From Eledone cirrhosa (Eukaryota): a stretch of 64,000 nucleotides of DNA. The stretch lies in NCBI GenBank assembly GCA_964016885.1, contig OZ024743.1:326988001-327052000 (forward strand), given 5' to 3'. The position numbers and the translations under genes were made by a program. The notes beneath the pieces are model-generated. The model was not told where the DNA came from, searched no databases, and saw nothing but the letters and a program-made list of their open reading frames with translations. Positions 172 to 60,800 of this stretch are shown piece by piece; within the stretch, counting starts at the first letter, position 1; every line of letters starts with the position of its first letter.

Positions 172-1444
172 GTAAGTTCTAGTTTGTAGGAAAGAAAATA
201 AGGCGGCGGTCCCATCGGGGAAATGGCCATGCTCAGTGTGTAGGAAAGGCATAGGTAGAAACTCCATTTTATGTCCCAAATGCAAAGTATGGGTGCATAA
301 AAGATGTAGTGGGATCACAGGTAAGCTAACTAAGAACATAGATTTTACATGTGGCCGGTGCTCTGGTGCAATAAGTAGCAGCAAGTGCCCACAAAATACT
401 AGCTCCTTCAACTGCGCAGAGGGTTCTATAGAAATAGTGGACAGCTTCCGTTATCTGGGTGACAAAATCAGCAGTGGGGGAGGGTGCTCTGAAAGTACAG
501 TAGCTAGAGTCAGAACTGGATGGAAAAAGTTCAGAGAGCTTATACCACTATTAGCCGCTAGAGGGTTCTCCCTAAAAATGAAAGGCAGGTTATACGATGC
601 CTGCATACGAACAGCAATGCTGCATGGCAGTGAGACCTGGGCATTGTGTGCAGAGGATATACGCAGACTAGAGAGGAACGAAGCTTGCATGCTCCGCTGG
701 ATGTGCAATAGTAATATACGTGAACGGCAAAGCATAAACGAACTAAGGAAAAAATTAGAAATAAGAGGGATCAGATGTTGTTTACTCGAGAGAAGGCTAC
801 GTTGGTACGGTCACGTGATGCGCATGAAAGACGACAGCTGTATAACAAAGTGCAGGGCAATAAAGATAGACGGTAGCCACGGAGTAGGCAGACCCAGAAA
901 AACATCGGACGAGCTGATAAATTCCGACCTCACACGCTTACACCTCTCCAAGACAATGTCACTGGACCGAGACCTTTGGCGGTACTCAGTAATAGAGAAG
1001 ACCCGCCTTACCTAAATACAAAGTAAAAACCTACTACAGTCAGTAGGCACCTCTATCAAAACACCCCCCCGTCCCACCACCTCCACCCCACCCACACCGC
1101 CCCTTTCAATGTAAAGTTATGTTGGTCCCACAACATCCAGGCCGAAACAAATGAGATCGTGTAGGTGTCACGACAAAAAACACACAGTCCACGCTGTAAA
1201 TGTGGCCGTGTAGGCAACACGGTAAAAACCTCCCAGCCCCACACTGTAAATGTGGTTGGTGTTAGGAAGGGCATCCAGCTGTAGAAAACCCGCCAGACAG
1301 TCCACGCTGTAATGTGGCCGTGTAGGCAACACGGTAAAAACCTCCCAGCCCCACACTGTAAATGTGGTTGGTGTTAGGAAGGGCATCCAACTGTAGAAAA
1401 CCCGCCAGACAGTCCTATGCGAGCAAGACAACCACTCTTGCCTC
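172..1444 (+). mobile_element. 5'-truncated RTE-clade LINE (family A), ORF C-terminus plus 3' UTR with an internal tandem duplication of about 113 bp
   Basis: ORF 236-1015 has a Cys/His finger followed by RTE C-terminal motifs (FRYLG, LHGSETW, RRLRWYGHVMRM, GRPRKT). The block agtccacgctgta...cccgccagac occurs twice (about 1186-1298 and 1299-1410). Confidence 0.9.
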
Positions 1445-2095
1445 AAACGAACTAAGGAAAAAATTAGAGATAAGAGGGATCAGATGTTGTTTACTCGAGA
1501 GAAGGCTGCGTTGGTATGGACACGTGATGCGCATGAAAGTCGATAGCTGTATAACAAAGTGCAGGGCAATAAAGATAGACGGTAGCCACGGAGTAGGCAG
1601 ACCTAGAAAAACCTGGGATGAGCTGATAAACTCCGACCTCACACACTTACACCTCACCAAGACAATGTCACTGGACCGAGACCTTTGGCGGTACTCAGTA
1701 ACAGAGAAGACCCGCCTTGCCAGTAGGCATCTCTAACAAAATACACCCCGTCCCGCCATCACACCCACCCCACCCACACCACCCCGTTCTATGTAAAGTT
1801 ATGTTGGTGCCGCGCCATCCAGGCCGAAACAAATGAGATCGTGTAGGTGTCACGACAAAAAAACACACAGTCCACGCTGTAATGTGGCCGTGTAGGCAAC
1901 ACGGTAAAAACCTCCCAGACCCACACTGTAAATGTGGTTGGTGTTAGGAAGGGCATCCAACTGTAGAAAACCTGCCAGACAGTCCTATGCGAGCAAGACA
2001 ATCACTCTTGCCTCAAGTGGGACTACCCCCGTCCAAACCCATGCAAGCATGGAACACGGACGTTAAACGTTGATGATGATGATGATGATAATGAT
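1445..2095 (+). mobile_element. Second RTE family A 3' fragment fused head-to-tail to the first, ending in a (GAT)n tail
   Basis: Restarts at aacgaactaaggaaaaaattaga (also at about 737). Ends ccgtcc..ccatgcaagcatgg..ggacg plus tgatgatgat. Confidence 0.9.
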
Positions 2096-2150: not shown

Positions 2151-2390
2151 CATGGTACCATGTGACGACAAGTGCAGAGAGATCCCCAGATATAAAGCAA
2201 TGCCTGTGCCGTGAAGCTTTTATAGTGAGCAAAGGCACTGCACTAAGCCAGTCCCACTCTCTTAACCAAGATGATATTTACCAAAAAGAAGAACAAGTCA
2301 ACATCATTGGATACCATCAGGGTTGCAGGTGTTATATCAGAGTTTTCCTTCTCCTAGAATTCTGATTGACAAAGGCTAAGGGGTCATTTG
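2151..2390. repeat. Unclassified interspersed repeat embedded in (TA)n, related to 10708-10885
   Basis: Shares gcaatgcctgtg..gtgaag..tgcact.agcca.tcccactctct...aaagaagaa with 10782-10885. Confidence 0.55.
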
Positions 2391-10097
<7,707 letters not shown>

Positions 10098-10332
10098 TGG
10101 TGGCTGCCAACTCGTTTTCGAGTACGGCCACTACTTTATATCCATGTAGGAGAACCCCTACCGATGCGCTGAACGAGTGTGACTTTTTAGTCCAGCCAGT
10201 GACTTGAAAACTCTGGTACAAACACTACACTTGTGACAATTATTGACACATAGTGCTGGGCCCTATATTATATATATAAATACATATATAAATACATACA
10301 TATATATATATACATACATACATATATATATA

Positions 10333-10649
10333 ATCATCATCATCATTTTACGTTTACTTTCCCCTGCTTGCAAGGGTGGCACGGGAACTGAATCTGGCTT
10401 GATTTCTACAGCTGGATGCCCTTGCTAACACCAACTGGGTGCTTCTTGCCGTGGCACCTCCACGACCACTTTGCAATGGAATGATATGGACCCCAGTCCT
10501 ATCATCTCATTTCTACAGCTGAGTAAACTGGAGCTATGTAAAATAAAGTGTCTTGCTCAAGGAAACAACACATCACCCGTTCTGAGAATTGAACTCACAA
10601 CCTTTTGATTGCAAGGCCAATGCTCTAACCACTAAGCCATGTGCCTCCA
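10333..10649 (-). mobile_element. tRNA-derived SINE with CORE-like middle and RTE-type 3' end (SINE-1)
   Basis: Minus strand: A box tggcttagtggttag, B box gagttcaattc, ccttgagcaagacactt, then ...agggcatccagctgtagaaa, ccacccttgcaagcaggg and (GAT)n. Copies at 16368-16694 and 33551-33885. Confidence 0.85.
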
Positions 10650-10661
10650 TATATACATACA

Positions 10662-10885: not shown

Positions 10886-11051
10886 ATATATGTGTGTATA
10901 TGTGTATATATATGTATCATCATCATCATGATCATCGTTTAACGTCTATATTCCATGCTCGCATGGGTTTGGATGGGAGTTTTCCCACTTGACGGGAGTT
11001 TTCCACTTATATATATGTGTATATATATATGTATATATATGTATATATATA

Positions 11052-11372
11052 TCATCATCATCATCATCAACGTTTAACGTCCGTGTTCCACGCTTGCATG
11101 GGTTTGGACGGGGGTAGTCCCACTTGAGGCAAGAGTGATTGTCTTGCTCGCATAGGACTGTCTGGCAGGTTTTCTACAGTTGGATGCCCTTCCTAACACC
11201 AACCACATTTACAGTGTGGGTCTGGGAGGTTTTTACCGTGTTGCCTACACGGCCACATTACAGCGTGGACTGTGTGTTTTTTTGTCGTGACACCTACACG
11301 ATCTCATTTGTTTCGGCCTGGATGGCGCGGCACCAACATAACTTTACATAGAACGGGGTGGTGTGGATGGGG
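11052..11372 (-). mobile_element. RTE family A 3' UTR fragment
   Basis: Near-identical reverse complement of 1770-2090; identical 70-aa spurious ORFs appear at 1789-2001 and 11139-11351. Confidence 0.9.
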
Positions 11373-11989
11373 TATGTATATATATATGTAGAGATGTGTA
11401 TATATATATATATGTATATATATGTGTATATATATATGTATTATATATATATATACACATATATATACATATATATATATACACATATCTTCATATATAC
11501 ATATATATATATACATACACATATATACATATATACATACACATATATACATACATACATACACATATATACATACACATATAGATATATATATACATAT
11601 ATATATACACATATATACACATATATATACACATATATATACACATATATACATATATATATACACATATATACATATATATATACACATATATACATAT
11701 ATATATACACATATATACATATACATATATACATATATATATATACACATATATACATATATATATATACATATATATATATACACATATATATATACAC
11801 ATATATATATACACATATATATATACACATATATATATACACATATATATATACACATATATATATATACACATATATATATACATATATATATACACAT
11901 ATATACATATATATACACACATATATACATATATATACACACATATATACACACACATATATACATATATATATACACATATATACATA
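11373..11989. repeat. (TA)n/(CA)n microsatellite
   Basis: Seen directly. Confidence 0.95.
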
Positions 11990-13298: not shown

Positions 13299-16008
13299 GA
13301 GCATTCTAGTCAGATAGATTTTATTCTCATCAGAGGACATGACAGATGGACGGTCGTAAACACAAAAGCCTTCCCTAGTGAGGAATGTACCTCCCAACAT
13401 AGCTTAGTTGTCAGCGACTTCTTTGTCAGAACTAGAGTTACTTGGAAACAGAAGGCAAACTGGAGAAGAAAGATCTTGAAGCTGAAAGAACCTTCAGCCA
13501 GTAACAGAATTAAAAATTTCTTACTTGACGCCTATGACAGTAAAGAAGAACAGATAGAGACATTCAATGTAGAAGAGCACTGGGAGTTCCTAAAAAATAA
13601 CTTACTAGAGGCGACGGATGAGGTCTGTGGCTGGAGTAAGACCACAAGCAGGAGGAGAGTGACTTGGTGGTGGAACAATAAGGTAACTGAGGCAATTAAG
13701 GCTAAGAAACAGGCATGGAAAGAATGGAAGAACGGGGGGAGCAGGGTTCATTACATAGAGACCGAGATGGAAGCTAGGCGACAAGTATACTTAGCTAGGA
13801 GGGAAGCAGAGGATAGAAAATTCAAGCCTGTTTTGCAACGTGAGGACCAGAAACAGGTGTTCAAGATTGCGAGGCAGTGTGTCAGAGAGAATTGTGATGT
13901 CATTGGAGAGAAGTGTATCCGGAATGATAAAGGTGAGCTTGCCCTCACAAGTGCTGAGAAGAAAGATTCATGGAAGAGTCATTATGATAGATTACTAAAT
14001 GAGGAGAATGCATGGGAAGAAGAGACCCTACCCCAAGTAGACCCTATAGAGGGGCCAGCAGTACAAGTCAGCAGCAGTGTAGTAAGGCAATCAAAGATAT
14101 GAAGATGGGGAAGGCAACCGGTCCATTGGGTATAGCTGCCGAGATGCTGAAGGCATCTGGGTCTGTAGGTCACACTATAACCACACGTATTGTTAACCAG
14201 GTAATACTAGAAGGTGTCATACCAAAAGATTGGGGCAGTAGCATCATTGTCAACTGCTACAAAGGTAAAGATGATGCACTCAATAGAGGTATAAAGATGA
14301 TGGACCAGGTCATGAAAGTAACAGAAAGAGTTATAGCACAGCTGATTAGGGACCGGGTGAAACTAGATGAGATGCAATTTGGGTTTGTACCAGGAAGAGG
14401 CACCACTGATGCCCTCTTCCTTGTGAGGCAGTTACAGGAAAAAGTACCTAGCTAAAAGTAAGCCACTCTACCTGGCATTCGTCGATCTTGAGAAAGCCTT
14501 TGACAGAGTTCCACGTGCTGTAATCTGGTGGGCTCTTAGAAAACTAGGAGTAGATGAATGGCTTGTGAAAGCTGTACAAGCCATGTATAGGGGAGCAGTC
14601 AGCAAAGTTAGGATTAGCAATGAGTATAGCGAGAAATTTAGCGTACAGATTGGTGTCCACCAGGGCTCAGTTCTTAGCCCTCTCCTGTTCATCATAGTCC
14701 TGCAGGCAATAACAGAAGAGTTTAAGACCGGATGCCCATGGGAACTCCTGTATGCTGATGACCTCGCACTTATAGCTGAATCTATGGTAGAACTAGAGAA
14801 GAAATTCCAAACTTGGAAGCAGGGACTAGAAGGAAAGGGTCTCAAAGTCAACATGACAAAGTCCTTGTAAGTAGACGAGAAAACAACCCACATCCCCTCA
14901 GGGAAATGGCCTTGCTCAGTATGTGGGAAAGGTGTAGGTAGGAACTCCATTCTCTGCCCCAAATGTAAACTATGGGTACACAAGAGATGTAGTGGGATCT
15001 CAGGAAGCTTAGTTAGGAATGTAGGCTTTACATGTAGCAGCTGTAGTGGGACAGTAAGCAGCAAACGGCCACAGGAAGCAAGTACCACCAATCTCTGGGA
15101 GGGCTCTGTAGAGACAGTAGACAGCTTCTGCTACCTAGGTGACCAAATTAGCAGCGGAGGTGGGTGTTCAGAAAGTAGAATAACTAGGGTAAGAACGGGA
15201 TGGAAGAAGTTCAGGGAACTACTGTCACTGCTAGCTGCAAAAGGCTTCTCCCTCAAAATGAAAGGCAGACTGTATGATGCGTGTATCCGAACAACAATGT
15301 TACATGGTAGTGAGACCTGGGCGCTGAAGGTGGAAGACTTACGTAGATTAGAGAGAAACGAAGCCTGCATGCTCCGATGGATGTGTAATAGTAATATACG
15401 CGACCGACAAAGCATAAATGAATTGAGAGAGAGACTGAGCATAAGAGGAATCAAATGCTGTGTGCAGGAGAGGCGGTTGATTGGTATGGACATGTGATGC
15501 GTATGAAGGATGACAGCTGCATAAAAAGGTGCAGAGCACTAGAAGTCGATGGAAACCGCGGAGTGGGGAGACCCAAGATGACCTGGGATGAGGTGATAAA
15601 AGGCGACCTTACCCAATTACACCTCTCCAAGGCGATGACACACGACCATGACCTCTGGCGTCACGCAGTAATACAGAGTACCCGACCTCCCATGGGTACA
15701 AGCTGAAGCATATAGACAATATGCCCCCACACCCTCCCACTGCAAGGTGGTCGTGGAGGTGCCATGGCACAAAAGCACCCAGCCCACACTGTAAAGTGGA
15801 CGTGTAGGCGCCAAGAAAAAGCACCCAGCACTCACTGTAAATGAGGTTGGTGTTAGGAAGGGCATCCAGCTGTAGAAATCAAGCCAAATCAGTTCCTGTA
15901 TGAGCAAGGCATGGTCAGCCTACCAGACACTGCCCACAACAGGACAGCCTGTCTAACCCATGCTAGTGTGGAAGAACGGACGTAAAACGGTGATGATGAT
16001 GATGATGA
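13295..16008 (+). mobile_element. Large RTE LINE (family B): APE C-terminus, RT, PHD-type finger, 3' UTR and (GAT)n tail; frameshifted
   Basis: SQIDFIL..SQHSLVV (end of APE), TWWWN, QFGFVPGRGTTDA, FVDLEKAFDRV, GVHQGSVLSPLLF, LYADD, C4HC3 finger, GSETW. Several frameshifts. Confidence 0.95.
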
Positions 16009-16161: not shown

Positions 16162-16350
16162 GGATATATATATACACATATATATATATGGATATATATA
16201 TACACATATATATATATATACACATATATATATACACACATATATATATACACACACATATATATATACACACACATATATACATACACATATATATATA
16301 CACACACACATATATATACACACATATATATATACACACAAATATATATC
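16009..16350. repeat. (TA)n/(CA)n microsatellite
   Basis: Seen directly. Confidence 0.9.
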
Positions 16351-16367
16351 TTTCATTTCATTTAATT

Positions 16368-16694
16368 TCATTTTATGTTCGCTTTTTCCCTGGTTGCAAG
16401 GGTGGAACGGGAACTGATTTTAGCTTAATTTCTACAGCTGGATGCCCTTCCTAACACCAACCTCATTTACAGTGAGTGCTGGGTTCTTTTTTTCTGTGGC
16501 ACCTACACGACCACTTTGCAGTGGAATGATAGGGACCCCAGTCCTATCATCTCATTTCTACAGCTGAGTAAACAGGAGCAATGTGAAATAAAGTGTCTTG
16601 CTCAAGGAAACAACACATCACTCGGTCTGAGAATTGAACTCACAACCTATCGATTGCAAGGCTAATGCTCTAACCACTAAGTCATGTGCCTCCA
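16368..16694 (-). mobile_element. SINE-1 copy
   Basis: Same structure as 10333-10649 and 33551-33885. Confidence 0.85.
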
Positions 16695-16696
16695 TA

Positions 16697-16727
16697 TTTC
16701 AGGCTTAACTGGCCTTCGTCAGGACGG
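16697..16727 (-). ncRNA. Truncated hammerhead ribozyme core
   Basis: Minus strand reads CTGACGA-AGGC-cagttaa-GCCT-GAAA: canonical core with a perfect 4-bp stem II. Stem III and the stem I partner are cut off by the SINE at 16694. Confidence 0.55.
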
Positions 16728-16779
16728 TCCCTCCCACCGCTTGCGACTGCTGGACTAGAAGACACATATATATATATAT

Positions 16780-18610
16780 GTGCCGGTGTACTTAGTGTCA
16801 CAAATGATCAGAAAAAGGAGGCCTGGAAATGTCATTATGAGAGACTGATGAATGTGGAGAACGAATGGGAGAGAGAGAAATTACCCTTAGTAGATCTGAC
16901 AGAGGGACCAGCTATTGAGATTGACGAATATAGGGTCCAAGAGGCGATTAGGGAAATGAAAAATGGTAAGGCTGCTGGACCATCGGGAATAGTTGCTGAG
17001 ATGCTGAAGGCATCAGGGGACGTAGGCACTAAACTGGTTGCACGCATCATCAATCAGGCTATATATAGTGGTGTCATACCCAAAGACTGGTGCAGCAGTA
17101 TTCTCATAAATTGCTACAAAGGTAAAGGGGATGCTCTGGAGAGGAGCAATTATAGGGGTATAAAACTGATGGATCAGGTTATGAAAGTGGCAGAAAGGAT
17201 ATTAGCACAGCTAATTAGAGAAAGGGTCAAACTAGATGAGATGCAGTTTGGTTTTGTGCCTGGGAAGAGTACAACAGATGCCCTCTTCTTGGTGAGACAA
17301 TTGCAAGAGAGGTTCTTAGAGAAAAATAAGCCACTATACTTAGCCTTTGTTGACCTAGAGAAGGCCTTTGATAGGGTACCCCGATCTGTCATCTGGTGGT
17401 CCCTAAGGAAGCTAGGTGTTGAGGAACGGCTTGTGAGGACAGTGCAAACTTTGTACAGAGGTACTCTCAGTAAAGTGAGGGTAGGAATGGAGTTTAGTGA
17501 GGAATTCCAGATACAAGTAGGAGTACATCAAGGTTCGGTCCTCAGCTCGCTCTTGTTCATTATAGTCCTCCAAGCCATAACAGAGGAGTTTAAGGCTGGC
17601 TGTCCATGGGAACTTCTCTATGCTGACGATCTGGTTCTTGTAGCAGAATCAGTAGAGGAGCTAGAGAATAAATTCTGGCTATGGAAACAGCAGTTGGAAG
17701 CAAGAGGACTGAGAGTGAACCTAGCTAAGACAAAAGTATTGATGAGTAGAAAAGAGGACAAAACTCTGATTCCGTCAGGGAAATGGCCATGTTCGATACG
17801 CAGAAAAGGAACTGGCATAAATTCTATAAAATGCACACAATGCAGATCCTGGGTACACAAGAGATGTAGCGGGATAGCAGGCAAACTAACAGGTAGGGAG
17901 AAATATGTATGCAGTAGATGTACAGGGAAATTAGACAGTAGAAGTCGCACTGATAGACACATTTTTCAAATGCAGGAGGGCGCTATAGAAGTGGTGGATA
18001 GCTTCCGGTACCTAGGAGATCAGATTAGCATGGGAGGAGGGTGTTCCGAGGCCATAGTATCTAGAATAAGGACGGGTTGGAAGAAGTTTAGGGAGCTGCT
18101 TCCTCTGTTGACGAAGAAGGGTTTCTCCCTGCGTACGAAAGGCCGGTTGTATGATGCCTGTGTGAGGAACGCGATGCTGCATGGTAGTGAGACATGGGCA
18201 GCAACCGCAGAGGATATGCGACGGCTGGAGAGAAATGAGGTAAGCATGCTCCGTTGGATGTGCAGTGTAAATGTGCGTGAACGACCCAGCATAAATGTGT
18301 TGAGAGAGAAAGTGTGTCTGAGAGGGATAGAATGTAGTGTACGGGAGAGGAGACTGAGGTGGTATGGACATGAGATGCACATGGAGGATGACCGATAGGT
18401 GAAGAAGTGCCAGGAAATGCCAGTTGAAGGAAGACGTGGTAGAGGTAGACCACAAAAAACATGGGCGGCGGTGGTGAGAACAGACCTCAGATCATTGAAG
18501 CTCAGGGTGGAGATGAAGGACCGTGACGAGTGGAGAGATGCTGTGCTGAATAAGACCCATCCCACCCTTGCAAGCAGGGAAAAGCGGACATAAAATGATG
18601 ATGATGATGG
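16780..18610 (+). mobile_element. 5'-truncated RTE LINE (family C) with uninterrupted RT domain and almost no 3' UTR
   Basis: ORF to 18398 with NYRGIKL, QFGF, DLEKAFDRV, HQGS, YADD, Cys finger, GSETW. One in-frame stop, then GRPQKTW...KTHPTLASREKRT, directly followed by (GAT)n. Confidence 0.95.
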
Positions 18611-18661
18611 TGATACACACATATATATGTGTATATATGTATATATACATATACACATATA

Positions 18662-18940
18662 TATCATCATCATCATCGTCGTTTAACATCCATATTCCAC
18701 GCTTGCATGGGTTTGGACGGGAGTTTTCCCACTTGAGGCAAGAGTGGTTGTCTTGCTCGCGTAGGACTGTCTGGCGGGTTTTCTACAGCTGGATGCCCTT
18801 CCTAACACCAACCACATTTACAGTGTGGAACTGGGAGGTTTTTACCGTGTTACCTACACGGCCACATTACAGCGTGGTCTGTGTGTTTTTTTTGTTGTGA
18901 CACCTACACGACCTCATTTGTTTCGGCCTGGATGTTGTGG
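18662..18940 (-). mobile_element. RTE family A 3' UTR fragment
   Basis: Reverse complement of the family A 3' UTR with (GAT)n tail. Confidence 0.88.
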
Positions 18941-19660: not shown

Positions 19661-20518
19661 ATACCACTATTGGCCGCTAAAGGGTTCTCACTAAAAATGA
19701 AAGGCAGGCTGTATGATGCCTGCATACGAACAGCAATGTTACATGGCAGTGAGACCTGGGCATTGTGTGCAGAGGATATACGCAGACTGAAAAGAAACGA
19801 AGCTTGCATGCTCCGCTGGATGTGTAATAGTAATATACGTGAACGGCAAAGCATAAACGAACTAAGGGAGAAATTAGGAATAAGAGGGATCAGATGCTGT
19901 TTACTCGAGAGAAGATTACGTTGGTATGGTCACGTGATGCGCATGAAAGATGACAGCTGTATAAAAAAGTGCAGGGCAATAAAAATAGACGGTAGCCACG
20001 GAGTAGGCAGACCCAGAAAAACCTGGGACGACTTGCTAAATTCCGACCTCACACACTTACACCTCTCCAAGACAATGTCACTGGACCGAGATCTTTGGCA
20101 ATACACAGTAATACAGAAGACCCGCCTTGCCTAAGTACAAAGCGAAACCTACAGTTAGTAGGCACCTCTAACAAAATACACCCCAACCCCACTACCCCCA
20201 CCCCGTCCACACCACCCCTTCCAATGTAAAGTTATGTTGGTACCACAGCATCCAGTCCGAAACAAATGAGGGCGTGTAGGTGTAACGACAAAAAAAAAAC
20301 ACACAGTCCACGCTGTAATGTGGCCGTGTAGGTAACACGGTAAAAACCTCCCAGTCCACACTGTAAATGTGGTTGGTGTTAGGAAGGGCATCCAGCCGTA
20401 GAAAACCTGCCAGACAGTCCCATACGAGCAAGACAACCAATTTTGCCTCAAGTGGGAAAATTCCCATCCAAACCCATGCTAGCGTGGAAGATGGACGTTA
20501 AACGATGATGATGATGAT
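19661..20518 (+). mobile_element. RTE family A 3' fragment with full 3' UTR and (GAT)n tail
   Basis: IPLLAAKGFSLKMKGRLYDAC...GRPRKTW; flanked by (TA)n on both sides. Confidence 0.92.
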
Positions 20519-25530: not shown

Positions 25531-25690
25531 TTCTGGGAATTAAAATTAATTTCTTTGATTTGCTTTGAAACTCAGACCTCTTCCCACAACACTAATATTT
25601 TTGAAACACTGCATGTGTATAAGGATAAGAATTTAAAACTTATATCTTGAACCAACAAAGAAAATTTATGTAAAAATAAAAGATACTTAC

Positions 25691-26079
25691 CATGAAAGGA
25701 TTAGCTGATGAAACAGAATTTGGAGCCCAACCACTCCCAAAAGCCTGGGCTGCAGGATGTGTTGCAAATCCACTGAACTTGTCCATTTGTCCAGGAGGGG
25801 CAAATGCTTGCATTGACTGGTGAGGCACTCCAAACGTCTGCACTGACTGCTGAGGTATAGCAAAGCCAGCTGAAGTTGCAGGAGACATAGCATTGAAGTT
25901 GCCATTCTGCATACCAAATTGGTTGAAACCAGAATTTGTTGTGGGTTGCACTTGATTGCTAAATAGCGAATTAGTACCATTACCTCCATTTCCTGCTGTA
26001 GGAGTGCCTATAGCAAAAGGATTTCCTCCACCAGCCACTGGTGCTTGAGAAAATACACTGGTTCCAAAAGGATTAGGTA
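25691..26079 (-). CDS. AGFG1: AGFG1 exon with three NPF motifs and FG repeats
   Basis: Acceptor ttcttacag| and donor |gtaagt; 389 nt, phase 1-0. VPNPFGTS...GGNPFAIG...SSANPFM. Confidence 0.93.
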
Positions 26080-26328
26080 CTGTAAGAAAGGTATTTTTCA
26101 TATATATAATATATTTATTAGCAGAGAAAATGGATGTTAAATGGTGATAAATATGTGTGTCAGTATACACACACAATTAATAAATCCCTCCAAATTCTTG
26201 ATTATTTTTTAAATGATTTGAAAATTACAGGTAGTGTATTTCATTAGAAATAAGGTAACAAAAAGGTTATGTATTTATAGTTATCTAAAATCCTATTAAA
26301 ATTTTATGTAGGAACCTCTACATAGTTA

Positions 26329-27430: not shown

Positions 27431-28043
27431 TAAGATCATCCAGCTATATAAATACTTGCTAAAACAAAAACCTTAATTTGTATCAACAGAAAAAAGTTGC
27501 CTGCAAAACTTTTAACAAGTAGATAGAATCCTATTTTGTGAAGCATCTGGATAAACATCACTGGGGTTTTAGAAATATTCTCCTCCACGAGTAAAAAAAG
27601 TAAGGAATAATGGATTAGCTGGCTCTGAGTTGGGCAACAGTAAATTCTATGACAAAATTGATCAACTTGTTTCAACCATCAATTTGATACAACTGAGTGA
27701 GACAAGAAGAAAAACTATCATTTCTTCATTCTCTATTATTTCACAAACAGAAATAAATTTACAATATTTTCCATATTTGATTTACAAACATTTTATACTC
27801 TAAAATTTGAAATGTAGTTGTCTTAATACAAGTGACTAAGTCAATTACTATTAAAGTTGAGGCAGCGAGTACTCTACCTAATTTTCTTAACTATTACGTA
27901 TAGTAATTGACTATTATTATGATCATTTGCATTGGGTCTACTACATTTAAAATTTTCACTAATGATTCTTAAGTCAACCAAGTGTTTACAAAAAGGAATT
28001 AAGAAAAAAAAAATAGAAAAAGTAAAAAGATTTAAATAATCAC

Positions 28044-28544
28044 CTGCATTTCCAAATGCTGTTTGTGATGCAGTGACACCAACTGGTACACCCCAGTTCA
28101 TATTAGTTGATGCATTTCCAGGAGCTCCTTGTGTACCCCATTCCATTTGAGAACCACTTGTAGTAGGGGCATTTCCAAAAGCAAAGCCACCAGTGCTATT
28201 AGCAGGAATTGCTGAGTTAACACCAGTGGTACTGGAAGGAGGAGTATTCAGCCCTCCACCCCAATTGATTGCATGGGCTGTGTTGTTTGCATTAGTTGGA
28301 ACATTCCATGTTGACGGTGCAGTTGTGCTCACAGCACTGCCACCACTACCACCACCTCCTGCTCCACTGCCATTGTCAGAGAAAACACTACAGAGATCTG
28401 CTAATGCAGCATACTTATCCGTAGACTGGTTGTTGGTCGGCTGAGGATTGGATAAAGTAGTAACAGTTGAAGAGGTTGGAAAGTTGGCAAATCCACCATT
28501 TGAAACCGTAGAAGGACCTCCCAATCCTAAGGGCTGCAGTGGAG
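28044..28544 (-). CDS. AGFG1: AGFG1 exon with FANF, DKYAALADL and FG repeats
   Basis: Acceptor cctttttag| and donor |gtgatt; 501 nt, phase 1-1. APLQPLGLGGPSTVSNGGFANF...STDKYAALADLCSVFS...AFGNA; DKYAALA-L-SVFS is a conserved AGFG motif. Confidence 0.92.
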
Positions 28545-29084
28545 CTAAAAAGGAAAAAATAAGGAAAAATTAGATATATACATTATTTATATGCACATAC
28601 ACATACATACACAAGCACATATATATATACATATATGAAGTGTTCATGAAGATCAGGAAGACCATAGATCAGGATAATACTCAATGCATGTTTCAGTACA
28701 GAATAGGTATAGTAATCAGTAAAATTCCAACAGAGGGCCCACATTCTTTCGGCTGGCCTGCAAGCTAACTAAATTTGAGCCAGTTAGATTATAAGCTAGC
28801 CAAAACAGAGTGGGCCCTGTTATAGTCTTACTAATACACTTGCTAAACAAAAGAAATGAGATTATATCACATTACAGATAACCAATGATATAGCAATAGC
28901 ACTATGGAAACACCTTGAAGACTTGACCCCAAACAGCATATTTAAATCATGTGCAACACACACACAATCAGCACTACTGTTTTACAGAGTGGACTGGGTG
29001 CATTTTATTGTGGTGCCATCAGTACCACTTTAAAGTGTGGGCTGAGTGCATTTTATAATGCCACCTGCATTACCACTTTACAGA

Positions 29085-32394: not shown

Positions 32395-32777
32395 TCAAAG
32401 GCGATGACACACGACCGTGACCTCTGGCGTCACGCAGTAATACAGAGTACCCGACCTCCCATGGGTACAAGCTGAAGCATATAGACAATATGCCCCCACA
32501 CCCTCCCACTGCAAGGTGGTCGTGGAGGTGCCACGGCAAAAAAGCACCCAGTCCACACTGTAAAGTGGTCGTGTAGGCGCCACAGTAAAAAAGCACCCAG
32601 CACTCACTGTAAATGAGGTTGGTGTTAGGAAGGGCATCCAGCTGTAGAAATCAAACGAAAATCAGTTCCTGTATGAGCAAGGCATAGTCAGCCGACCAGA
32701 CACTGCCCACAACAGGACAACCCGTCTAACCCATGCTAGCATGGAATAACGGACGTAAAACGGTGATGATGATGATG
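32395..32777 (+). mobile_element. RTE family B 3' end inserted into an older tRNA-SINE (about 32228-32394 and 32778-32830)
   Basis: Near-identical to 15630-16000. The flanks are two halves of a SINE (gtggattcgcagaatc..gagttcaaatccc..aaagtgccag on the left; gaaattgctggccttgt on the right). Confidence 0.88.
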
Positions 32778-33550
32778 AACTTTATCCTTTCCTTGAAATT
32801 GCTGGCCTTGTACGTAAATTAGAAGTTATTAATTACTTGAAGTATCATCATCATCATCATCATCACTTAACATCAGTTCTGCTTGCTAGCAAGAGTTGGA
32901 CAGGTCATCACAGACCAAATCAGTACTTAGAGCTACTGAACTTTCAGATGGGCTAGGGGATGCATCACACATATGCACCCATTTTCTCTAACTTTATCTC
33001 TATTTACAATATGCCCCAAGTACATTTTTATAATACCAACACTGGGGAGATTTTCATGTCCCAAACACAACTGAAAAGTCCTCTTAACCCCTTTGTTTGG
33101 CAAGTTTTCTATGACTAGATGTCCTTCCTATCATCAACCACTTTATACTGTTTTTACGACTGCATATATTTTGTATGTTGAAATACAGTGATGAGTAAAT
33201 AACACTATGGAATGGAACTCTATTGGTTTCAATAATCAACGTTCCAGTTGTTTGATCAATAGAACAGCCTACTCATGAAATTAACAAGTGACCAAGCATT
33301 CCACAGACATAGTTAACAAATTCTTTCAGGAACAATCAGTGTGACATAGTGTGGGACAAAGCTGGCCCTTTGAATTGAAGATACATCCAATGGGCTTCCA
33401 AACAGTGTCTATTCAATTTCACTCACATGATATGAATCAATCTGAAGTTATGGTAAACAACATTTACTCAAGATGCCATGCAGTGGGCTAAAACCAAGGA
33501 CCTAATGATTGTGAAACTATCTGGCCATGCTGCATCCACTTTTATATATA

Positions 33551-33885
33551 CATCATCATCATTTTACGTCCGCTTTTCCCTGCTTGCAAGGGTGGGACGG
33601 GAACTGATTCTGGCTTGATTTCTACAGCTGGATGCCCTTCCTAACACCAACCTCATTTATAGTGAGTGTTGGGTGCTTTTTTGCCGTGGCACCTTCACGA
33701 CCACTTTGCAGTGGAATGATAGGGACCCTAGTCCCTATCATCTCATTTTTACCGCTGAGTAAACTGGAGCAATGTGAAATAAAGTGTCTTGCTCAAGGAA
33801 ACAACACATCCCCCGGTCTGAGAATTGAACTCACAACCTTTCGATTGAAAGGCCAATACTCTAACCACTAAGCCATGAGCCTCCA
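33551..33885 (-). mobile_element. SINE-1 copy (best preserved)
   Basis: A/B boxes, CORE-like segment, structured modules and a 3' end matching RTE family C; (TA)n on both sides. Confidence 0.88.
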
Positions 33886-35554
33886 TATATATATATATGC
33901 ATATATTTTCAATGTTGCAATATGTAACTGAATAAATAACACTATGTTACTACATATATTTATATATTTACTGACTAGCAAATATTAAGTGGAGGGACTG
34001 AGAACAAACATCAACTAAGTATGATTCTCTCTCTATTTCATTTATTTCCTGCCACAAGGTATGAGGTTGTCTCAAAAATGAATAAATAAATAAATAAAAG
34101 ATACAAACATTTCTTAATACTCTTTAACCCTGGCTCTGGTTCTATGAAACAAAAGCACTCATTTTAAAAGGGTTCCTATTTAAATGAAAATCTTTCAACA
34201 TAATTTTACAAAAGAAATATGTTAAGTTACTATCTTAGTAATGAAACAATAATTTTAGTAAATCTGTCAAAGTTCTTCATTAATTCATTGAAATGTAGTG
34301 TAAGCCATTAGAAATATGGTAACAAAAGGATTAAACAACTATTTCAGTGAAGGACAGTCAAATCGTGACTTTTTGTTCATATTTCAACATTATCGACTCA
34401 ATTTGAAATAATGTTTTAAATTTGTAGAATTGGGATCAGCCATTCTTCTTGTTTCTTTATGAATCCCCAAATTGTTATGGTTACTGAACAGACACACACA
34501 AGGAGATGTAACCAAAATGGATGAAAATTAACTTATAATCAATGTGCATTTGCTGAACATTCTACATTGGCTAATATCATTTGACAACGGATGGCCATCA
34601 CCAATATATTTTTTTGTTATCTATCACAAACAACAATATCCAATATATTTCTTAACCCTTTTGGTACCAAACCACTTGAAACTGTCCATGGGTCTATGAT
34701 ACAAAGCTCCCTGTTTTAAAGTGTTCAAACTTGTATTAAATCCTTGCATCATAATTTTAAGAACCTTTGTTAAGTTATGTCCCAAATACCAACCAGCTTA
34801 ATAATGAGAAATTAATTATTTTACTAAATTCCTCCAAATTCTCGATTATTTTGAAAATTAATTGAAACACATTAGCAGTGTCTTTTATTAAAACTATATG
34901 GAAAAGGGAAAGTTTTAACTGGAATGTTCAACTAATACTCCTGGTTTTCATTTAACCACACAGAGTTTTTAGAAAGCATAGACAAATAAGCAAGTATGTT
35001 GAAGATGCTGCAGAATGAGTAATATAGATTAAAAATCTTATTTAGAAACAGATATATCTTAGATGACATACCACTAAAACAAGCAAACAAGCAGGAATAA
35101 ATTAACTTTTAGAAAAAGTCAGATGGGAGATGGACAAACAAAAATTAGGCAAACACTGCAGGAAGTGCTGATAAAGGAGTAATTAATATGATAGTGACAC
35201 ACACAGACAAATATATCAAACAGTATAATTATGTAAATTGCTAGAGATACAAAGCAAACTACAGCATAATACAAGTAAATTAATAAAACAAAAAATATAA
35301 ACATGTCATACACACACACAAACGCACATATATATATGCATAAAATATAATGTATAATATATGTATATAATATAGAATATAATTTATATATATATAAAAG
35401 GAAAAGTCTGTTACTTATAGAAAATGAAATGGTTGATCTTACAAATTTTAAAATAACTTCATAGTAACCAATTTTTTAATAAGAAAATGAATGATGCTAT
35501 TTATTTTGTATCTGATGTAGTATTTTAAAACGAAACTGACAATCATTATTGTCC

Positions 35555-42271: not shown

Positions 42272-45200
42272 GCTTTCTTTATTAACCACAAGGGTTTACA
42301 CAAAATGAGACATTAGGACAGTACAGGACGGTACAAATGGGCATTTCTGCGTGTAAAAAAAAAAAAAAACAGAGGATGTAACAAAAAAAGGAACAATGAA
42401 AAAATTCCCCAATAGGGGGGAGACTTCCGAGGGCCATCGTAGAGAAAGCCCATTAAAAAAGCCACAGTGACCCTGACCACCAGGGCAAGTGCACTCTCCC
42501 AGTTTTCCACCTTCAATTTACAGGCACATACTCAGAGTAGGTCCATTCACTCGGGCCATTCTTGCCTCTCTCACCCATCTTTCAACAAAACGCTGGGAAG
42601 AGAACACTTCCCTCTCTACCCTGATTTTCCTTTTCAAATGAAATTTGAAAAAGTTAATCAGGGTATCACCGAAGAGGTAAGTGCTCGTCTTCAGCCCTTT
42701 CAGACACGTCCACCATACTATCTCTTTCGCCATGGCCACCAGACAGATAAAAACTGCCTGCCCTTCCCGACTAACGGAAGAGGGCAGGGCAATCCTCACG
42801 ATGGACTCAGCTGATAGCCGGATCCGTTCTACACGCGACAGCAGGTGTTCGACATAAACCCACAAGTCAGCAATGCTCGGACACTGGACGAGTGCGTGCA
42901 GGACGGTTTCGTCGCCCTACGCGCATCTCGGACATGCCCGGCTGACGGCACTTCCATGCCTGTAGAGTTTATCCTGAACTGGCAAAGCTCCTCGGTAGCA
43001 CTTCCAGGCCAAGGATTTCTGGAAGTTGTCCATAGGCCCCGCCCCGAAAGTTCTTGCGAAGAGATTGGCTAGTTGATTTTTGTCGATGCCTAGAGTTTCC
43101 CCAAGTACGCCGTCGCTCTTCCCCTCCACTAATCCTCTATAGAACGCCAAGGTGGAATTTCCACCGATCACATTGCCCGACTGGTCGAGGGCTGTGAGCG
43201 CCTGAAGACATTCCAGTCTCCAAGCGCTCCCTTTCGGTCTTCGCTTGACCCAGGACTGCAGCTCCGTCAAGGAGACGTGCTGGGGAAAGACGCGTCTAGC
43301 AAACGGCGACCACACCTGATCACCATCGAGGAAGAGGTGGAGATGTTGTAGCCTGAGCGCATGTCTGCGCATCATCAGCCACGACATGCCCAGCCCTCCA
43401 CGTAGTGGGTGTTGACAGCAGATGGACCGCCTGACCATCAGAGCGCGTCCCTTCCACAAAAAGCAAAAGAGCAAACGCTCCAGTGCACTTAGGCGAGGCT
43501 TAGGAGAAGGCACAACTGTCAGGCGGTAGTAGATGACGGACGCGATGTACGCATTCGCCACCTCCGCTCGACCTTTCAGGGATAGCTTCCTCTCTGCCTA
43601 TTTCTGGGTGTGAGAAGCCACCCTGCTCATGACCTCTTCCCAGTTTTTGTTCGTCTGGAGGTCCGGACCGAACCAGACCCCTAGCAATTTAACCAGTCCG
43701 TCCGTCCAGCGCCCGACAACACTGTTAGACGGCATGGACTTGCCTCTCCAGGTGCCGAGCTGCAGGCCCACCGACTTTTCTTGGTTGATCATTGCTCCTG
43801 TTACCGTTTCGTATTCTCTTAGTGTAGTGCCGATCGCTTCGATCTTCCGCATCCTAGTTCATGCGGGACCCCCCCTCAACGTCTCCAGTTTGTGCAGTAA
43901 TGGCTCGAGTCAATACGTACAAGAGGGACGAGAGGGGACATCCTTGGAGGACCGAGTGCATGATGTTGAACGGTTCCGAAAGGTGACCATTCACTCTCAC
44001 CACAGAGCAGATGTCGCTGTGCTTGGCAGCGATCCAGCCTCTGAAGACGGGCCCAAAGCCAGCCGCCCTCAGGACTGCCGCCAGATAACGATGGTCAACC
44101 CTATTGAAAGCTTTCGACTGATCTAACTACCCTTTCCACGATGTATCGCATAAGGTGGAGGTTGTCATGGATGGATCTGTCTGGAATGGCGCATGTGTGT
44201 GCCTCTCCCACCAGACCACCAACAACAAGCGCCAACCTCTTTGCTAGCACCTTGGCCAAAATCTTGAACTTAGTGTTTAGCAGAGTTATGGGCTTGAAAT
44301 TATCTATGGTATCCCCCTTGTTCGGATCCTTTCTCAACAGCGCCACCGCTCCTCGGCTCACAGAGCTGGGAATTCTCCCGTTCTGTTGCCAGTTGCAGTA
44401 GACGTCTGCCAAGAGGCCTCCGAACAAGTCTAGTATCTGTACGTAAAGTTCATAGGGCAGACCATCCAAACCAGGCGATTTACCCCTTGTGCAGCCAGTC
44501 ATTGCTTCCCGTACTTCAGCGGCTGCTATCGGCTTTTCGCAACACTCCGACTCAGTAGCTGAGAGCCGCGGCAGTCCGCCAAGGTAGGCATTAAAGTCCA
44601 TCCCTCGATCCAGCCCACCGCTGCCCCCGAACAGCTGAGCGAAGTGTCGCTGAAAAGCTTCACACATTTGCCTGGGATTGAGTAGCATGCGCCTGTCGTG
44701 GGCCACCAAAGACCGGATCGTGGCTTTGTTTCCACGACGCGCCTCCGCCACTCGGGCCCATTGAATGGCTTTCGTCCCCTCGTGTACGAGAGCACGCACC
44801 CTAGCTCTGACAACGCAGCCTTCGTGCTTTACATTGAAGAATTGGTCACCGGCCAATTTCGCCGCAAGTACGTCGGTCACGATGCCTTTGCTAAGCGCCT
44901 CGTCTAATTTTCTAACTAGTTCTCCCTCTGCTCTATTTTTCTCTATTGCTAAAGCCTTACTAAACCTAATGGACTCTATTCTAATCGCTCTTTTCAGAGC
45001 AAACCACCATTTGTTGTTGACGATGGCCCCCGTCAACGCCCGCTTAACTAGCTCACTAATCCGGTCTCTGTAGGCCTTGCGCGCTGTTAATGACGCGTTT
45101 AGCTTCCAGTAGCTGGGTCCCTGTCTATGAAGCCTATCTAAGTCAACCACACAGATCACGAATTTGTGGTCCGTGTAGCTGACTATCTTGAATTGTGGAC

Positions 45201-50502: not shown

Positions 50503-51349
50503 TAATATAGATGAGATACTAAACAAAAGGTCATGATATGACAACCTCTCTAGTGCTGGTGCCACAAAAAAATGTACCCAGAAGTTGATGATAAGAAGGA
50601 CATCTAGTTATAGAAACCATGCAAACAAAGGGTTGAGAGGACTCTTCAGTTGTGTCAAGGGCACAATAACATCTAATGCTAGTGACATGATAAAACACAC
50701 CCAGTACACTATGTAAAGTGGTTGGTGTTAGGAAGAACATCCAACAGTAGAAAATGTGTCAAACAGAGGGTTGAGAGGATAGTTCACCTGTGTTAAAGAC
50801 AACCTCCCTAGTGCTGGTGTCATGGTAAAATGCACCCAGAGCATTCCATAGAGAGCCGGAACATATGTGAGAGGCAGATCCTGACCCATCTGAGAGATCA
50901 GTAGCTCTCTGTCCAATCTTTGCTAACAGAGAAAATGGAGGTTAAACTGAATATGATGATGCCATTTCTTCAAACTCACACATTGTTATATACTCTCAAT
51001 TGAATCTCCTTTTACTATGTTATCAATGAAATTTAAAGACAAAGTCTCCCAATTTTCCAACATATACTTTGATATGTATGTGTGCATATTTGACTAAGCT
51101 ATTAACTTGGATACCTACATGACATTATAATATGAATTAAATTAATGGTTTCATTTAGCAGAAAGAGTTGCTGAAAGTAATATGGTGCATGTATCCAACC
51201 ACATTTTAAGCAACATTATTTTTAAATACCATATATAAGCCACATTGGTAAACAAATTACACCTCCATTTTACATACATTTACACTGTACCATATATTTT
51301 GAATTGTGGTTTTGTAGGTCTAGTGGATAAATCACAGGTTAGGTTTTAA

Positions 51350-57359: not shown

Positions 57360-60300
57360 GATTCTTACAGAGTTAAAGATTTTGGCCAAGGTGTTGGCAA
57401 TGAGGTTGGTGCTTGTAGTCGAGAACCTGGTAGAGAAAGCGCAAACATTTAGCGTACAGGTTGGGGTCCACCAGGGCTCTGTTCTTAGCCCTCTCCTGTT
57501 CATCATAGTCCTGCAGGCAATAACGGAGGAGTTTAAGACAGGATGCCCATGAGAACTCCTGTATGCTGATGACCTCGCACTCATAGCTGAATCTATGGTA
57601 GAACTAGAGAATAAATTCCAAACCTGGAAGCAGGGACTAGAGAGAAAGGGTCTCAAAGTCAACATGACCAAGACTAAGGTCCTTGTAAGTAGACGAGAAA
57701 ACAGAACCCAGATCCCCTCGGGGAAATGGCCTTGCTCAGTATGTAGGAAAGGTGTAGGTAGGAACTCCATTCTCTGCCCCAAATGCAAACAATGGGTACA
57801 CAAGAGATGTAGCGGGATCTCAGGAAGCTTTATTAAGAATGTAGGATTCACATGCAGCAGCTGTGCTGAAACAGCAAGCAGCAAACAGCCACAGGAAACA
57901 AGTACCACCAATCTCTGGGAGGGCCCTGTAGAAACAGTAGACAGCTTCTGCTACCTAGGTGACCGAATTAGCAACGGCGGTGGGTGTTCAGAAAGTACAA
58001 TAACTAGGGTAAGAACGGGATGGAAGAAGTTTAGGGAACTACTACCACTGCTAGCTGCAAAAGGCTTCTCCCTCAGAATGAAAGGCAGACTGTATGATGC
58101 GTGTATCCGAACAGCGATGTTGCATGGTAGTTAGACCTGGGCGCTGAAGGTGGAAGACTTACGTAGATTAGAGAGAAACGAAGCCTGCATGCTCCGATGG
58201 ATGTGTAACAGTAATATACGTGAATGACAAAGCATAAATGAATTGAGAGAGAGACTGAGCATAAGAGGAATCAAATGCTGTGTGCAGGAGAGGCGGTTGC
58301 GCTGGTATGGACATGTGATGCGTATGAAGGATGACAGCTGCATAAAAAGGTGCAGAGCACTAGAAGTTGATGGAAACCGCGGAGTGGGGAGACCCAAGAT
58401 GACCTGGGATGAGGTGATAAAAGCCAACCTTACCCAATTACACCTCTCAAAGACAATGACACACGACCGTGACTTCTGGCGTCATGCAGTAATACAGAGT
58501 ACCCGACCTCCCATGGGTACATGCTGAAGCATATAAACAATATGCCCCCACACCCCCCACCGCAAGGTGGTCGTGGAGGTGCCACGGCAAAAAAGCACCC
58601 AGCCCACACTGTAAAGTGGACGTGTAGGCGCCACGAAAAAGCACCCAGCACTCACTGTAAATGAGGTTGGTGTTAGGAAGGGCATCCAGCTGTAGAAATC
58701 AAGCCAGATCAGTTCCTGTATGAGCAAGGCATGGTCAGCCGACCAGACACTGCACACAACAGGACAACCCGTCTAACCCATGCTAGCGTGGAAGAACGGA
58801 CGTAAAACGGTGATGATGATGATGATGATGTGCAATCCCGACCAGGTCCATACACGACAACCTCCACTTCCTGCGATACATCATAGAGAAAGTAGGGTGT
58901 AAACCCGGCTTCGGTGGGGCTCTGATCAATTTAGATCGGTCTAAGGCTTTCGATAGAGTCAACCATCGATACTTGGAAGCGGTTCTCAAGGCGGCCGGTT
59001 TCGGACCCGTCTTCAGAGGCTGGATCGCCGCAATGCACACCAACATCTGCTCGATGGTCAAGGTGAACGGTTACCTATCGGAGCCGTTCGCAATCAGGCG
59101 TTCCATCTGACAGGGATGCCCTCTCTCCTCCATTATGTACGTACTGACTCTAGAGCCACTACTGCGAAAGTTGGAGCTGCTGCAGGGCATCCCGTTGGAA
59201 CCGGGACTGCGAAAAGCGGTGTCGGCTTATGCCGACAACGTGATGGTAATGGTGTCGGAAATCGGGGCAATCGGCAACTTACTGTAGGAATACGAAAGGC
59301 TCACAGGAGCAAAACTGAACCCGGACAAGTCTGTTGATTTGCAACTCGGAACGTGGAGAGGCAAACCGATGCCGTCCGACAGCGTCGTCAGACACTGGAT
59401 GGAAGAACCGGTGAAATTGCTCGGGGGTCTGGTTCGGTCCAGACCTCCAGGTGGAGAAAAACTGGAACGAGGTCACGGCCAAGGTATTTGCGCTCACCCA
59501 GAAATGGGCAGAGTGCAAACTATCCTTGAAAGGTCGAGCGGAGGTGGCGAACACTTTCATAGCGTCCGTCATCTACTACCGCTTGACTGTTGTGCCTTGT
59601 CCCCATGAACACCTCACCAAGATGGAACAAATGCTCTTCCAGTTCCTTTGGAAAAAGCAGGCTCCACTGGTGAGGAGATCCGTCTGCTGTCAGCACCCTT
59701 CCAACAGAGGGCTAGGAATGCCATGGCTGATGATGCGCAAGCATGCAGTGCGGCTACTGCATCTACAGGTATTCCTCACCGACCCCCAACCGGTGTGGGC
59801 ACCGTTTGTGAGACAGGCCTTCACGCAACTTGTCTCGCTGATGGAGCTGCAGACCTGGGTCAAGCGGAGACCAAAGAAGTTGGGCGCCAGGCACATTGAA
59901 TGCGCTCAGGCGCTCTCAGTCCTCTGTCAAGCGGGCACGGCAATGAGTGGAGACTCCACTTCGACATTCTATAGAGGGTTAGTACGACACAAGGGCGACG
60001 ACGTGCTTGGAGAGACTCTAGGTGTCGAAGACGACGAACTCATCAGTCTGTTTGGTAGGACTTTCCGCCCGGGTCCTATGGACAACTTCCAGAGGTCCCT
60101 GGCCTGGCAGTGCTACCGAGGAGCTCTACCAGTTCGTGACAAAATCTACAGGCACGGACGCCCCGGCAGGGATTGAAACTGTCTTACACGCAATTGTACA
60201 CTGCCCGGGCGTAACCGACCTGTGGAACTACGCAGAACAACTGCTGTCGCGTATGGGACAAATCCTGTTGATTGCCGAGTCCATAGTAAAGATCAAACCT

Positions 60301-60800
60301 CCATCATCCTTCAAAAGCGAAAAAGAGGCGGTTTTCCTCTGTATAGTGGCTATGGTGAAAGAGGTTATATGGTGGACAAGATTGAGAGGACTGGGGACAG
60401 ATGCCTTTCTTTCCGGACACCAACTCATTCCCTTCTTTAGATACCACTTTAGAAGGAGAATCAGAGTGGGGAGAGAGGCATTGCACCCCAGTAAATTTAC
60501 TGAAAGGTGGGTGAATGTGGCAAAAATGGCCCGAGTGATTGGGCCTTCTCTGTATATAAACCTGTAGGTTGAAGAAGAGAGCAAAAGGAAGAAAAGAGCA
60601 CTTGCACAACACGCTCCTGAAGTTGAGGGTTGTTCTATCTACGGGGTATTAAACAACCCATTTGTGGCGCCTCCCTCCCATCAGGGATTTCGATTGTTAT
60701 ATTTATTTGTTTCCTATTTTTACACGATTGTATGAAAAATCCCCGGCATGTCCTTGTTCTGTCCCCTTTTCTTGTGCGCCCTTGTGGCTAATAAAGAAAT
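57360..60800 (+). mobile_element. 5'-truncated Tx1/L1-clade LINE (RT to 3' end), interrupted by an RTE
   Basis: TELKILAKVLA..EKAQT, then CAIPTRSIHDNLH..KAFDRV..QGCPLS..AYADN..SLKGRAEVAN..RGALPVRDK. 3' end ccttgtggctaataaagaaa, as in the copy at 42272. Confidence 0.92.
57448..58830 (+). mobile_element. 5'-truncated RTE family B nested in the Tx1-like element
   Basis: Near-identical to 14637-16008; GVHQGSVLSP, YADD, intact C4HC3 finger, (GAT)n tail. Confidence 0.95.

Follow-up and report, generated by a model that had tools for sequence, protein, structure and literature searches.

The focal array and its relatives in the window

Between coordinates 32395 and 32776, the window (the whole 64,000-nucleotide stretch of DNA that was analysed) carries the 3' end of a truncated RTE family B element, in which the end of the ORF is followed by an array of modules and by a (GAT)n tail (Table 1). 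The unit of the array is a hairpin followed by a predicted pseudoknot, and GYAA is the feature common to the hairpins. Three-module arrays are present at all five places listed in an earlier note on this DNA, on the plus strand, 3' of the ends of RT ORFs and 5' of (GAT)n tails, and the SINE-1 and decayed module copies which the note had claimed were both found. Not on that list are two minus-strand family A ends, one young family A array in which modules are duplicated, SINE-1 in three copies and some eight old, decayed module copies, all within the window.

Table 1. Module arrays and related elements in the window, with the focal family B copy in the first eight rows.
Feature	Position	Strand	Basis
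End of RTE family B ORF (last codons and stop), 5'-truncated copy	32395..32475	+	Self-BLAST boundary; stop set by homology to full-length B copies
Hairpin 1: 5-bp stem, GCAA (GNRA-type) tetraloop	32506..32519	+	Fold; closing-pair counts
Short module 1: predicted H-type pseudoknot, S1 6 bp, L1 2 nt, S2 5 bp, L2 0, L3 A6	32519..32548	+	Descriptor, shuffles, pair counts
Hairpin 2: stem CACU/AGUG, GUAA tetraloop	32553..32568	+	Fold
Short module 2, decayed: both stems mismatched	32568..32597	+	Descriptor not satisfied
Hairpin 3: stem CUCA/UGAG, 7-nt loop (family A: CACA/UGUG)	32603..32617	+	Fold, alignment
Long module (RTE-wide core): S1 GGUUGG/CCAGCU; loop conserved, linker rich in A; the GCC partner downstream is mutated in the focal copy	32617..32659	+	Alignment, homologues
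Rest of family B 3' tail and (GAT)n	32660..32776	+	
Young family A array, modules 2 and 3 duplicated (five units)	1137..1415	+	
Family A array	1835..1985	+	
Family A 3' end with array, absent from the earlier note	11042..11373	-	
Family B array	15737..15894	+	
Family A 3' end with array, absent from the earlier note	18663..18934	-	
Older family A array, module 1 stem broken	20270..20420	+	
Young family B array, GCAA tetraloop closed by C-G	58557..58714	+	
RTE family D copy, 5'-truncated, without 3' UTR (full-length D elsewhere: modules in 5' UTR)	16782..18613	+	
SINE-1 with tRNA-like head, modules 1 and 3 of B type and the 3' tail of family D	16330..16700	-	
SINE-1 copy	33540..33890	-	Includes weak tRNA match 33818-33875
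SINE-1 copy without hairpin 3	10330..10660	-	Includes weak tRNA match 10582-10639
Family C: old tandem array of the same modules	50531..50839	+	
Further decayed module copies	near 24658, 30068, 62377, 62438	+	
Further decayed module copies	near 25430, 33130, 36643, 62971	-	

A 15-nt core of the long module occurs 61 times in 96 random 10-kb loci, matches close to locus edges being left out, versus once in the reversed control; this density (about 61 per 960 kb) extrapolates to about 190,000 copies in the 3.0-Gb genome. An exact 31-nt pattern found no match in the same genome. Elsewhere in the genome, a 48-nt short module forms kilobase minisatellites of dozens of units (G000:C22:21877007-21878299, C4:64807753-64811080 and C3:373570195-373575831).

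Several other features of the window are recorded here. An 8-kb TA-rich compound microsatellite array occupies 2250-10200. A U4 snRNA match above the gathering score (61 bits) at 63666-63781 on the minus strand has a degenerate 3' part and is likely a pseudogene. Frames with an NPF-rich low-complexity peptide at 25640-26176 and 27874-28569 (minus strand) are likely exons of a host gene with repeats in its introns, and we take the peptide to resemble endocytic adaptors. Pieces of another LINE type, presumably L1/Tx1-like, lie at 42917-46887 (minus strand) and 59415-60567 (plus strand) and carry no modules.

Anatomy, conservation and covariation of the modules

The hairpins vary in loop size from 4 to 9 nt. 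When the smallest loop on a stem of at least 4 bp is counted over copies, which are not independent events, the short-module hairpins have loops of 4 nt in 278 of 424, of 6 nt in 97 and of 7 nt in only 14, whereas the hairpins before the long module have loops of 7 nt in 164 of 258 and of 4 nt in 43. Families D, C and G differ from 7 nt, and family A has lost the hairpin of module 1. A reading of the loop as a constant CUGUAAA is thereby rejected, most short-module hairpins being GYAA tetraloops.

For the pseudoknots, a strict H-type descriptor was used, with S1 of at least 5 bp, L1 of 1-3 nt, S2 of at least 4 bp, L2 of 0-1 nt and an A-rich L3. Module 1 satisfies it in four of the five arrays listed earlier, the copy at 20270 being the exception, and shuffled sequences do so in 1-8 of 300. 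The best register of module 1 pairs GUCGUG with CACGGC as S1 and GGUGC with GCACC as S2, with GA as L1 and A6 as L3. Neither module 2 nor the short unit of family D leaders satisfies the descriptor; the stems of module 2 are broken in both B and A, and its second stem is weak in A. The proposal of tandem units, each a hairpin with an H-type pseudoknot, thus holds as a prediction for module 1, but only one module per array passes the strict descriptor.

The long module consists of a 6-bp S1, a near-invariant loop, an A-rich linker and a downstream GCC. This GCC is found in 61/65 copies of family A, 91/107 of B and SINE-1, 35/39 of D and 30/50 of E and G, whereas a downstream CCU is found in 24/65, 0/107, 0/39 and 1/50, respectively; the old family C has GCC in 6/23 and CCU in 7/23. 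An AGG/CCU stem as the general partner in the last module is therefore rejected, CCU being confined to family A among the A, B/SINE-1 and D sets. Pairing of GGC(AU) with (AU)GCC would give the long module the same topology as the short module. The partner of GCC is invariant, and the two registers are equal in column score; in the pseudoknot-free minimum free energy (MFE) fold, GGC is used to extend a hairpin. The GCC register is favoured only slightly as a model of S2. For the whole array, the MFE fold prefers a competing long hairpin, and the folding energy, computed without pseudoknots, is ordinary (z of -0.97 and -1.20).

A third type of predicted pseudoknot, with stems of 5 and 8 bp and a hairpin inside L3, was noticed in D leaders (L311:1575-1620 and L429-L457) and in family C arrays, e.g., at 50531-50839 of the window. 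Its stem variants between D units and family C look compensated.

Conservation of the array is above neutral. Families A and B are 83% identical in the array versus 39% at fourfold sites and 64% in the tail behind the array, and the UTR before the array is unalignable between them; A or B and D are 71-74% identical in the long module versus 34% at fourfold sites. This conservation is the strongest sign of constraint on the array, to which local recombination between families could contribute.

Covariation was assessed for the short module in 18 representatives picked by hand from 410 parsed copies (284 distinct). Cells in the proposed stems are paired in 86.7%, versus 83.0% after shuffling (reached in 0 of 500 shuffles) and 29-59% when the stems are slid. 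Double changes are seen in 2 pairs versus 2.2 in shuffles, and the covariation score is matched by 13 of 500 shuffles. Fourteen long modules have zero double changes at the column level in either register, in an alignment in which MAFFT left a 4-nt insertion of D ungapped and so hid D's own S1. When the outer pair of S1 in D long modules was counted directly, it was U-A in 23, C-G in 15, U-G in 2 and unpaired in none of 40. Likewise, the pair closing the GCAA loop of hairpin 1 is U-G in 27, U-A in 39 and C-G in 16, is unpaired in 1 of 83 and is never C-A. Both sets of compensated pairs reflect few evolutionary events. The covariation score of the hairpin was reached in 1 of 500 shuffles, a value that is inflated by two non-homologous D rows and carries no weight here, and one alignment that had been chosen beforehand for its stems was left out of the covariation evidence. 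Many stems are broken in families that are young and active (B2, A2 and G2). Of the covarying stems claimed earlier, a few clean compensations and a modest short-module signal stand, but many stems are broken and the long module has no column-level signal. The broader claim of a selected, multimerised RNA element fares better, being supported by the 83% versus 39% identity, by the clean compensations in some stems and by modules duplicated in 11 of 12 young full-length family A copies.

Host families and homologues of the array

Full-length relatives in the same genome contain a single ORF, about 1020-1110 aa long, in which AP endonuclease, RT and PHD domains are encoded. From this anatomy (a single EN+RT ORF and a short tandem-repeat tail) and the match of their UTRs to those of hagfish RTE-2_EBu and of RTE-4_EBu, the host elements are called putative LINEs of the RTE clade. 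The ORF at 16674-18398 of the window belongs to a third young family, D, with 64-65% aa identity to A and B. In family A, the array lies 249-255 nt past the stop codon; in family B, it lies about 147 nt past the stop in the copies listed. The older family E carries several short units, with the end of an ORF upstream in 11 of 30 copies.

In family D, the ORF extends to the (GAT)n tail without a 3' UTR, and the core lies 74 nt upstream of the AUG in all seven young full-length copies. Upstream of the core, six of the seven long D copies have a U tract, a hairpin, a pseudoknot of the third predicted type, a short module and another hairpin. The number of such units reaches several in older D copies, with the ORF start downstream in 22 of 30; in young D copies, a long U tract replaces the sequence further upstream and one full set of units is kept. 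The D leader contains 18-25 upstream AUGs in 900 nt, five of them within the last 191 nt (four copies). In D, an out-of-frame AUG (L311:1701) falls within the downstream strand of the long module; it stands 46 nt ahead of the main AUG, which its 26-codon frame overlaps; in the predicted fold, pairing of that strand would hide the out-of-frame AUG.

The 5' UTRs of A and B do without modules: six B copies with an intact leader had none in the 420 nt examined, and matches upstream of A copies proved to be flanking repeats where inspected (L326, L328, L332 and L335, out of a set that also includes L336 and L337). Family A leaders 5' of the ORF contain tandem AT-rich monomers of about 190 nt in L329-L333. 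SINE-1 combines a tRNA-like head and B-type modules with the tail of family D. The description of the array as a 3'-UTR element is thus correct for A and B but incomplete, as the core is an RTE 5'-UTR element and lies in the 5' UTR of D.

A scan of metagenomes for the core gave at least 120 loci. Among the matches listed, 105 loci (L052-L171) represent a single family of short, RTE-tailed elements that begins sharply at its 5' end, some 30 nt ahead of the core. This family has UGCC at the 5' start and not downstream (downstream GCC in 1 of 104, among the matches listed), and may be a permuted form of the long module. One way to draw it is as a nested double pseudoknot in which the UGCC strand has shifted to the 5' end; its extra stem has no covariation (Fisher p 0.81). 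The other 15 loci, among the matches listed, include tRNA-headed SINE-like elements (including L060 and L095, which carry the core), a few likely chance matches and two cores adjoining a twister ribozyme. A twister lies flush with the core in L144 (E 3.2e-9), as does a weak twister match in L136 (E 0.21), and neither locus has the downstream GCC. Viral contigs yielded one match, which looks like chance.

The same core recurs in a published supplement (Kojima, 2020; PMC7245038), within the 5' UTRs of hagfish RTE-2_EBu and of RTE-4_EBu and in five hagfish SINE consensus sequences (SINE1-1, 2-1, 2-1B, 2-9 and 2-10_EBu, counted as four SINE families). As judged by eye, a twister-like sequence precedes the core in RTE-2_EBu. 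The hagfish segment, compared by eye, shares the core sequence of the long module, along with an A-rich linker and a downstream UGCC, and serves as a SINE body. Unlike the array, it is a single copy, lies in the 5' UTR and is without the hairpin and the short-pseudoknot units; the hairpin is absent from the metagenome relatives as well. In the parts of PMC7245038 considered here, the segment is treated only as a piece derived from an RTE 5' UTR, with no structure or function given. The core is thus shared by the hagfish supplement (by eye), the D 5' UTR and SINE-1, as expected of an RTE 5'-UTR-derived SINE segment.

Other RTE 5' ends show related arrangements. A distant RTE family in the same genome has nine twister-P1 matches at its 5' end, none of which reaches the gathering score; behind the twister come an analogous G-rich stem and GUAAAA. 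Members of this family (L192-L200 and L320) begin at the cleavage site, and L320 has an open frame of 1043 aa without a 3' UTR. Schistosome twisters in the supplement of PMC8501958 are followed by a similar start. The Perere-3 twister variants (Liu, 2021; PMC8501958) belong to the same clade and have the same neighbourhood as the core, which follows a twister in L144 and RTE-2_EBu; however, none of the modules is a twister, no twister lies near them in A, B or D, and the parts of PMC8501958 considered here describe no element behind the ribozyme. In L216:3359-3638, L225 and L147, the sequence upstream of the core is like the opening 70 nt of RTE-4_EBu from hagfish. It is a structured 5' piece that stands where other RTEs have a ribozyme. 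This piece has no Rfam match and is a candidate for an unknown ribozyme. A conserved RTE 5'-UTR piece in PMC5786205 is likewise reused by SINEs, sometimes twice, and its author suspects a function, but its sequence is different and the core has no match in the text of that supplement. A stretch resembling that piece, by eye, lies upstream of an older D array.

No Rfam covariance model matches any module at E<=5 or E<=10 (window 10200-64000 and 1000-2120, the focal copy and one older D locus). A reading of the modules as twister or permuted twister was rejected, as they have no Rfam match and the twister of other elements lies beside them. Viral tRNA-like structures and dicistrovirus IGR IRESs have a pseudoknot in common with the array, where it is predicted, some copies of which have an anticodon-sized loop; the array is unlike them in having no CCA end, no acceptor-arm geometry and no fixed loop size. 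In place of a 3' CCA with an acceptor-arm pseudoknot, a tail of about 110 nt and (GAT)n follow the array, and in D the array precedes the ORF. ARAGORN called no tRNA on the array. The upstream pseudoknot domain of tobacco mosaic virus (TMV) consists of three tandem pseudoknots. The array resembles this tobamovirus domain and 3' cap-independent translation elements (CITEs) in having predicted pseudoknots in the 3' UTR of an RNA without encoded poly(A), in modularity and in presumed movement by recombination (PMC5382211). Tandem units and a (GAT)n end are seen here too, but only one unit per array passes the strict descriptor. The likeness is one of design; the array has no Rfam match, resides in a retrotransposon, has interleaved hairpins and also occurs 5' of an AUG.

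No description of this structure was found in the main texts of open-access papers. The structure can therefore be called undescribed as far as those texts reach, but the sequence has been published, as a SINE segment that derives from an RTE 5' UTR (PMC7245038). A transcribed octopus RTE with a C2H2 finger has a mostly microsatellite 3' UTR and apparently belongs to another family, and no UTR structure is described for it in the parts of PMC9115989 considered here. The modules are best seen as a multiplied and relocated variant of an RTE 5'-UTR element, the sequence of which is in print and the structure of which apparently is not.

Possible function and history of the array

Our leading reading, offered tentatively as quite possible though short of probable, is that the array is a conserved, tandemly multiplied segment of RTE UTRs, with predicted GYAA hairpins and H-type pseudoknots with A-rich loops, that would recruit ribosomes or translation factors from either end of the RNA. 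Its function would be position-independent and exerted at the RNA level, because the array would have survived a move from 5' to 3' and is kept by SINEs. Recruitment was chosen because the core precedes the AUG of an AUG-rich leader, because it comes after ribozymes with cleavage products that undergo translation without a cap (PMC8501958), because in design it resembles TMV's upstream pseudoknot domain and mobile 3' CITEs (PMC5382211), and because it varies too little to suit a partner co-evolving with each family. In Perere-3 reporters, translation is supported by cleaved twister variants (PMC8501958); the TMV domain can replace poly(A) in stimulating translation, and 3' CITEs are mobilised through recombination (PMC5382211). 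Also counted in its favour are the conservation above neutral, the twister next to the core and the compensated pairs. Counted against recruitment are double changes no more frequent than in shuffles, the absence of a column-level signal in the long module, the broken stems, the failure of D's short unit to satisfy the descriptor, the ordinary folding energy, the missing downstream GCC in L136 and L144 and the module-free 5' UTRs of A and B; retention by SINEs would suit a protein-binding role equally well.

Historically, the long module may have begun as an element behind a 5' ribozyme and expanded in a D-like 5' UTR together with hairpin and short-pseudoknot units, after which the array would have been transferred to the 3' UTR in the A/B/E lineage. 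The array might allow translation of RNAs with a poor 5' end, either ribozyme-cut or rich in upstream AUGs, and a (GAT)n end. Non-coding SINEs might keep it since ribosome binding would place them near fresh RT, as argued for the Alu domain. Redundant copies would decay, one or more good short units being kept along with the long unit. An ancient 5'-UTR origin with later multiplication and a move to the 3' UTR is proposed because the core is the hagfish RTE 5'-UTR segment and lies directly behind a twister there and in a metagenome contig. A wider version, which we regard as conceivable but on the doubtful side, would make the core an animal-wide RTE pseudoknot, placed behind the 5' ribozyme and able to recruit ribosomes from either end with neither cap nor poly(A), multiplied and moved here from the 5' to the 3' UTR like a plant-virus 3' CITE, and this would be the reason why unrelated SINEs keep capturing the segment.

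Retention by non-coding elements and independence of position would also fit a binding site for the RTE protein, used in RNP assembly or the second-strand step at any position in the RNA and without a role in translation. The elements in question are SINE-1, the four hagfish SINE families, L060, L095 and the short element family with 105 copies among the matches listed, and the 5' pseudoknot of R2, which binds R2 protein, offers a precedent. This serious contender is nevertheless unlikely: the core is near-invariant across phyla and across RTE proteins that are only about 65% identical here, a pattern expected more of a conserved host partner than of element proteins that co-evolve, and SINE-1 pairs B-type modules with a D tail, so that specificity seems to reside in the tail. 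A view of the modules as passengers or as elements acting at the DNA level is improbable; they would be a 48-nt unit prone to duplication, or monomers resembling promoters, carried by successful elements and homogenised by recombination, with pairing as a by-product. Growth of the unit into kilobase minisatellites, broken stems in active families, and covariation that is weak overall and nil in the single testable stem of the metagenome family would all be expected of passengers. However, the array is more conserved than both flanks, unlike the outcome of a plain 3'-end swap, its orientation is always sense, pairs are compensated without an unpaired intermediate, and a promoter in the 3' UTR would be of no use to A or B.

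The place of the core directly behind a twister, together with the sharp start of the metagenome family shortly before the core, would suit pseudoknots that block an exonuclease after ribozyme cleavage in the manner of xrRNAs and serve stability only. We consider this decidedly improbable, as the 5' ends of A and B copies are scattered and do not pile up ahead of the array (30 A-matching and 15 B-matching ends, of which several are truncated by a locus edge), and a block to 5'-3' decay past the stop codon would give the ORF no protection. The lead of the earlier note, in which the hairpin mimics the anticodon arm of tRNA-Tyr and the array is a tRNA-like structure, draws on the 7-nt loop on a 4-5-bp stem before most long modules and on an A-U to U-A compensation between A and B in that hairpin. 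With other loop sizes in nearly all short-module hairpins and in D, C and G, no CCA end, no tRNA call and no hairpin in the hagfish and metagenome relatives, such mimicry is not supported and appears barely plausible.

The finding of the third young family, D, with modules in its 5' UTR is new here, as is the proposed 5'-to-3' relocation. RTE UTRs are being optimised empirically for RNA-only gene writing (PMC13708176), and a defined structural element in these UTRs would be of practical use there. Natural compensatory variants define mutants for testing. With some 190,000 core copies extrapolated for the genome, many could lie in host transcripts. The three related young families, which carry the same element at opposite ends, and the SINE, which carries it without an ORF, constitute a natural experiment.
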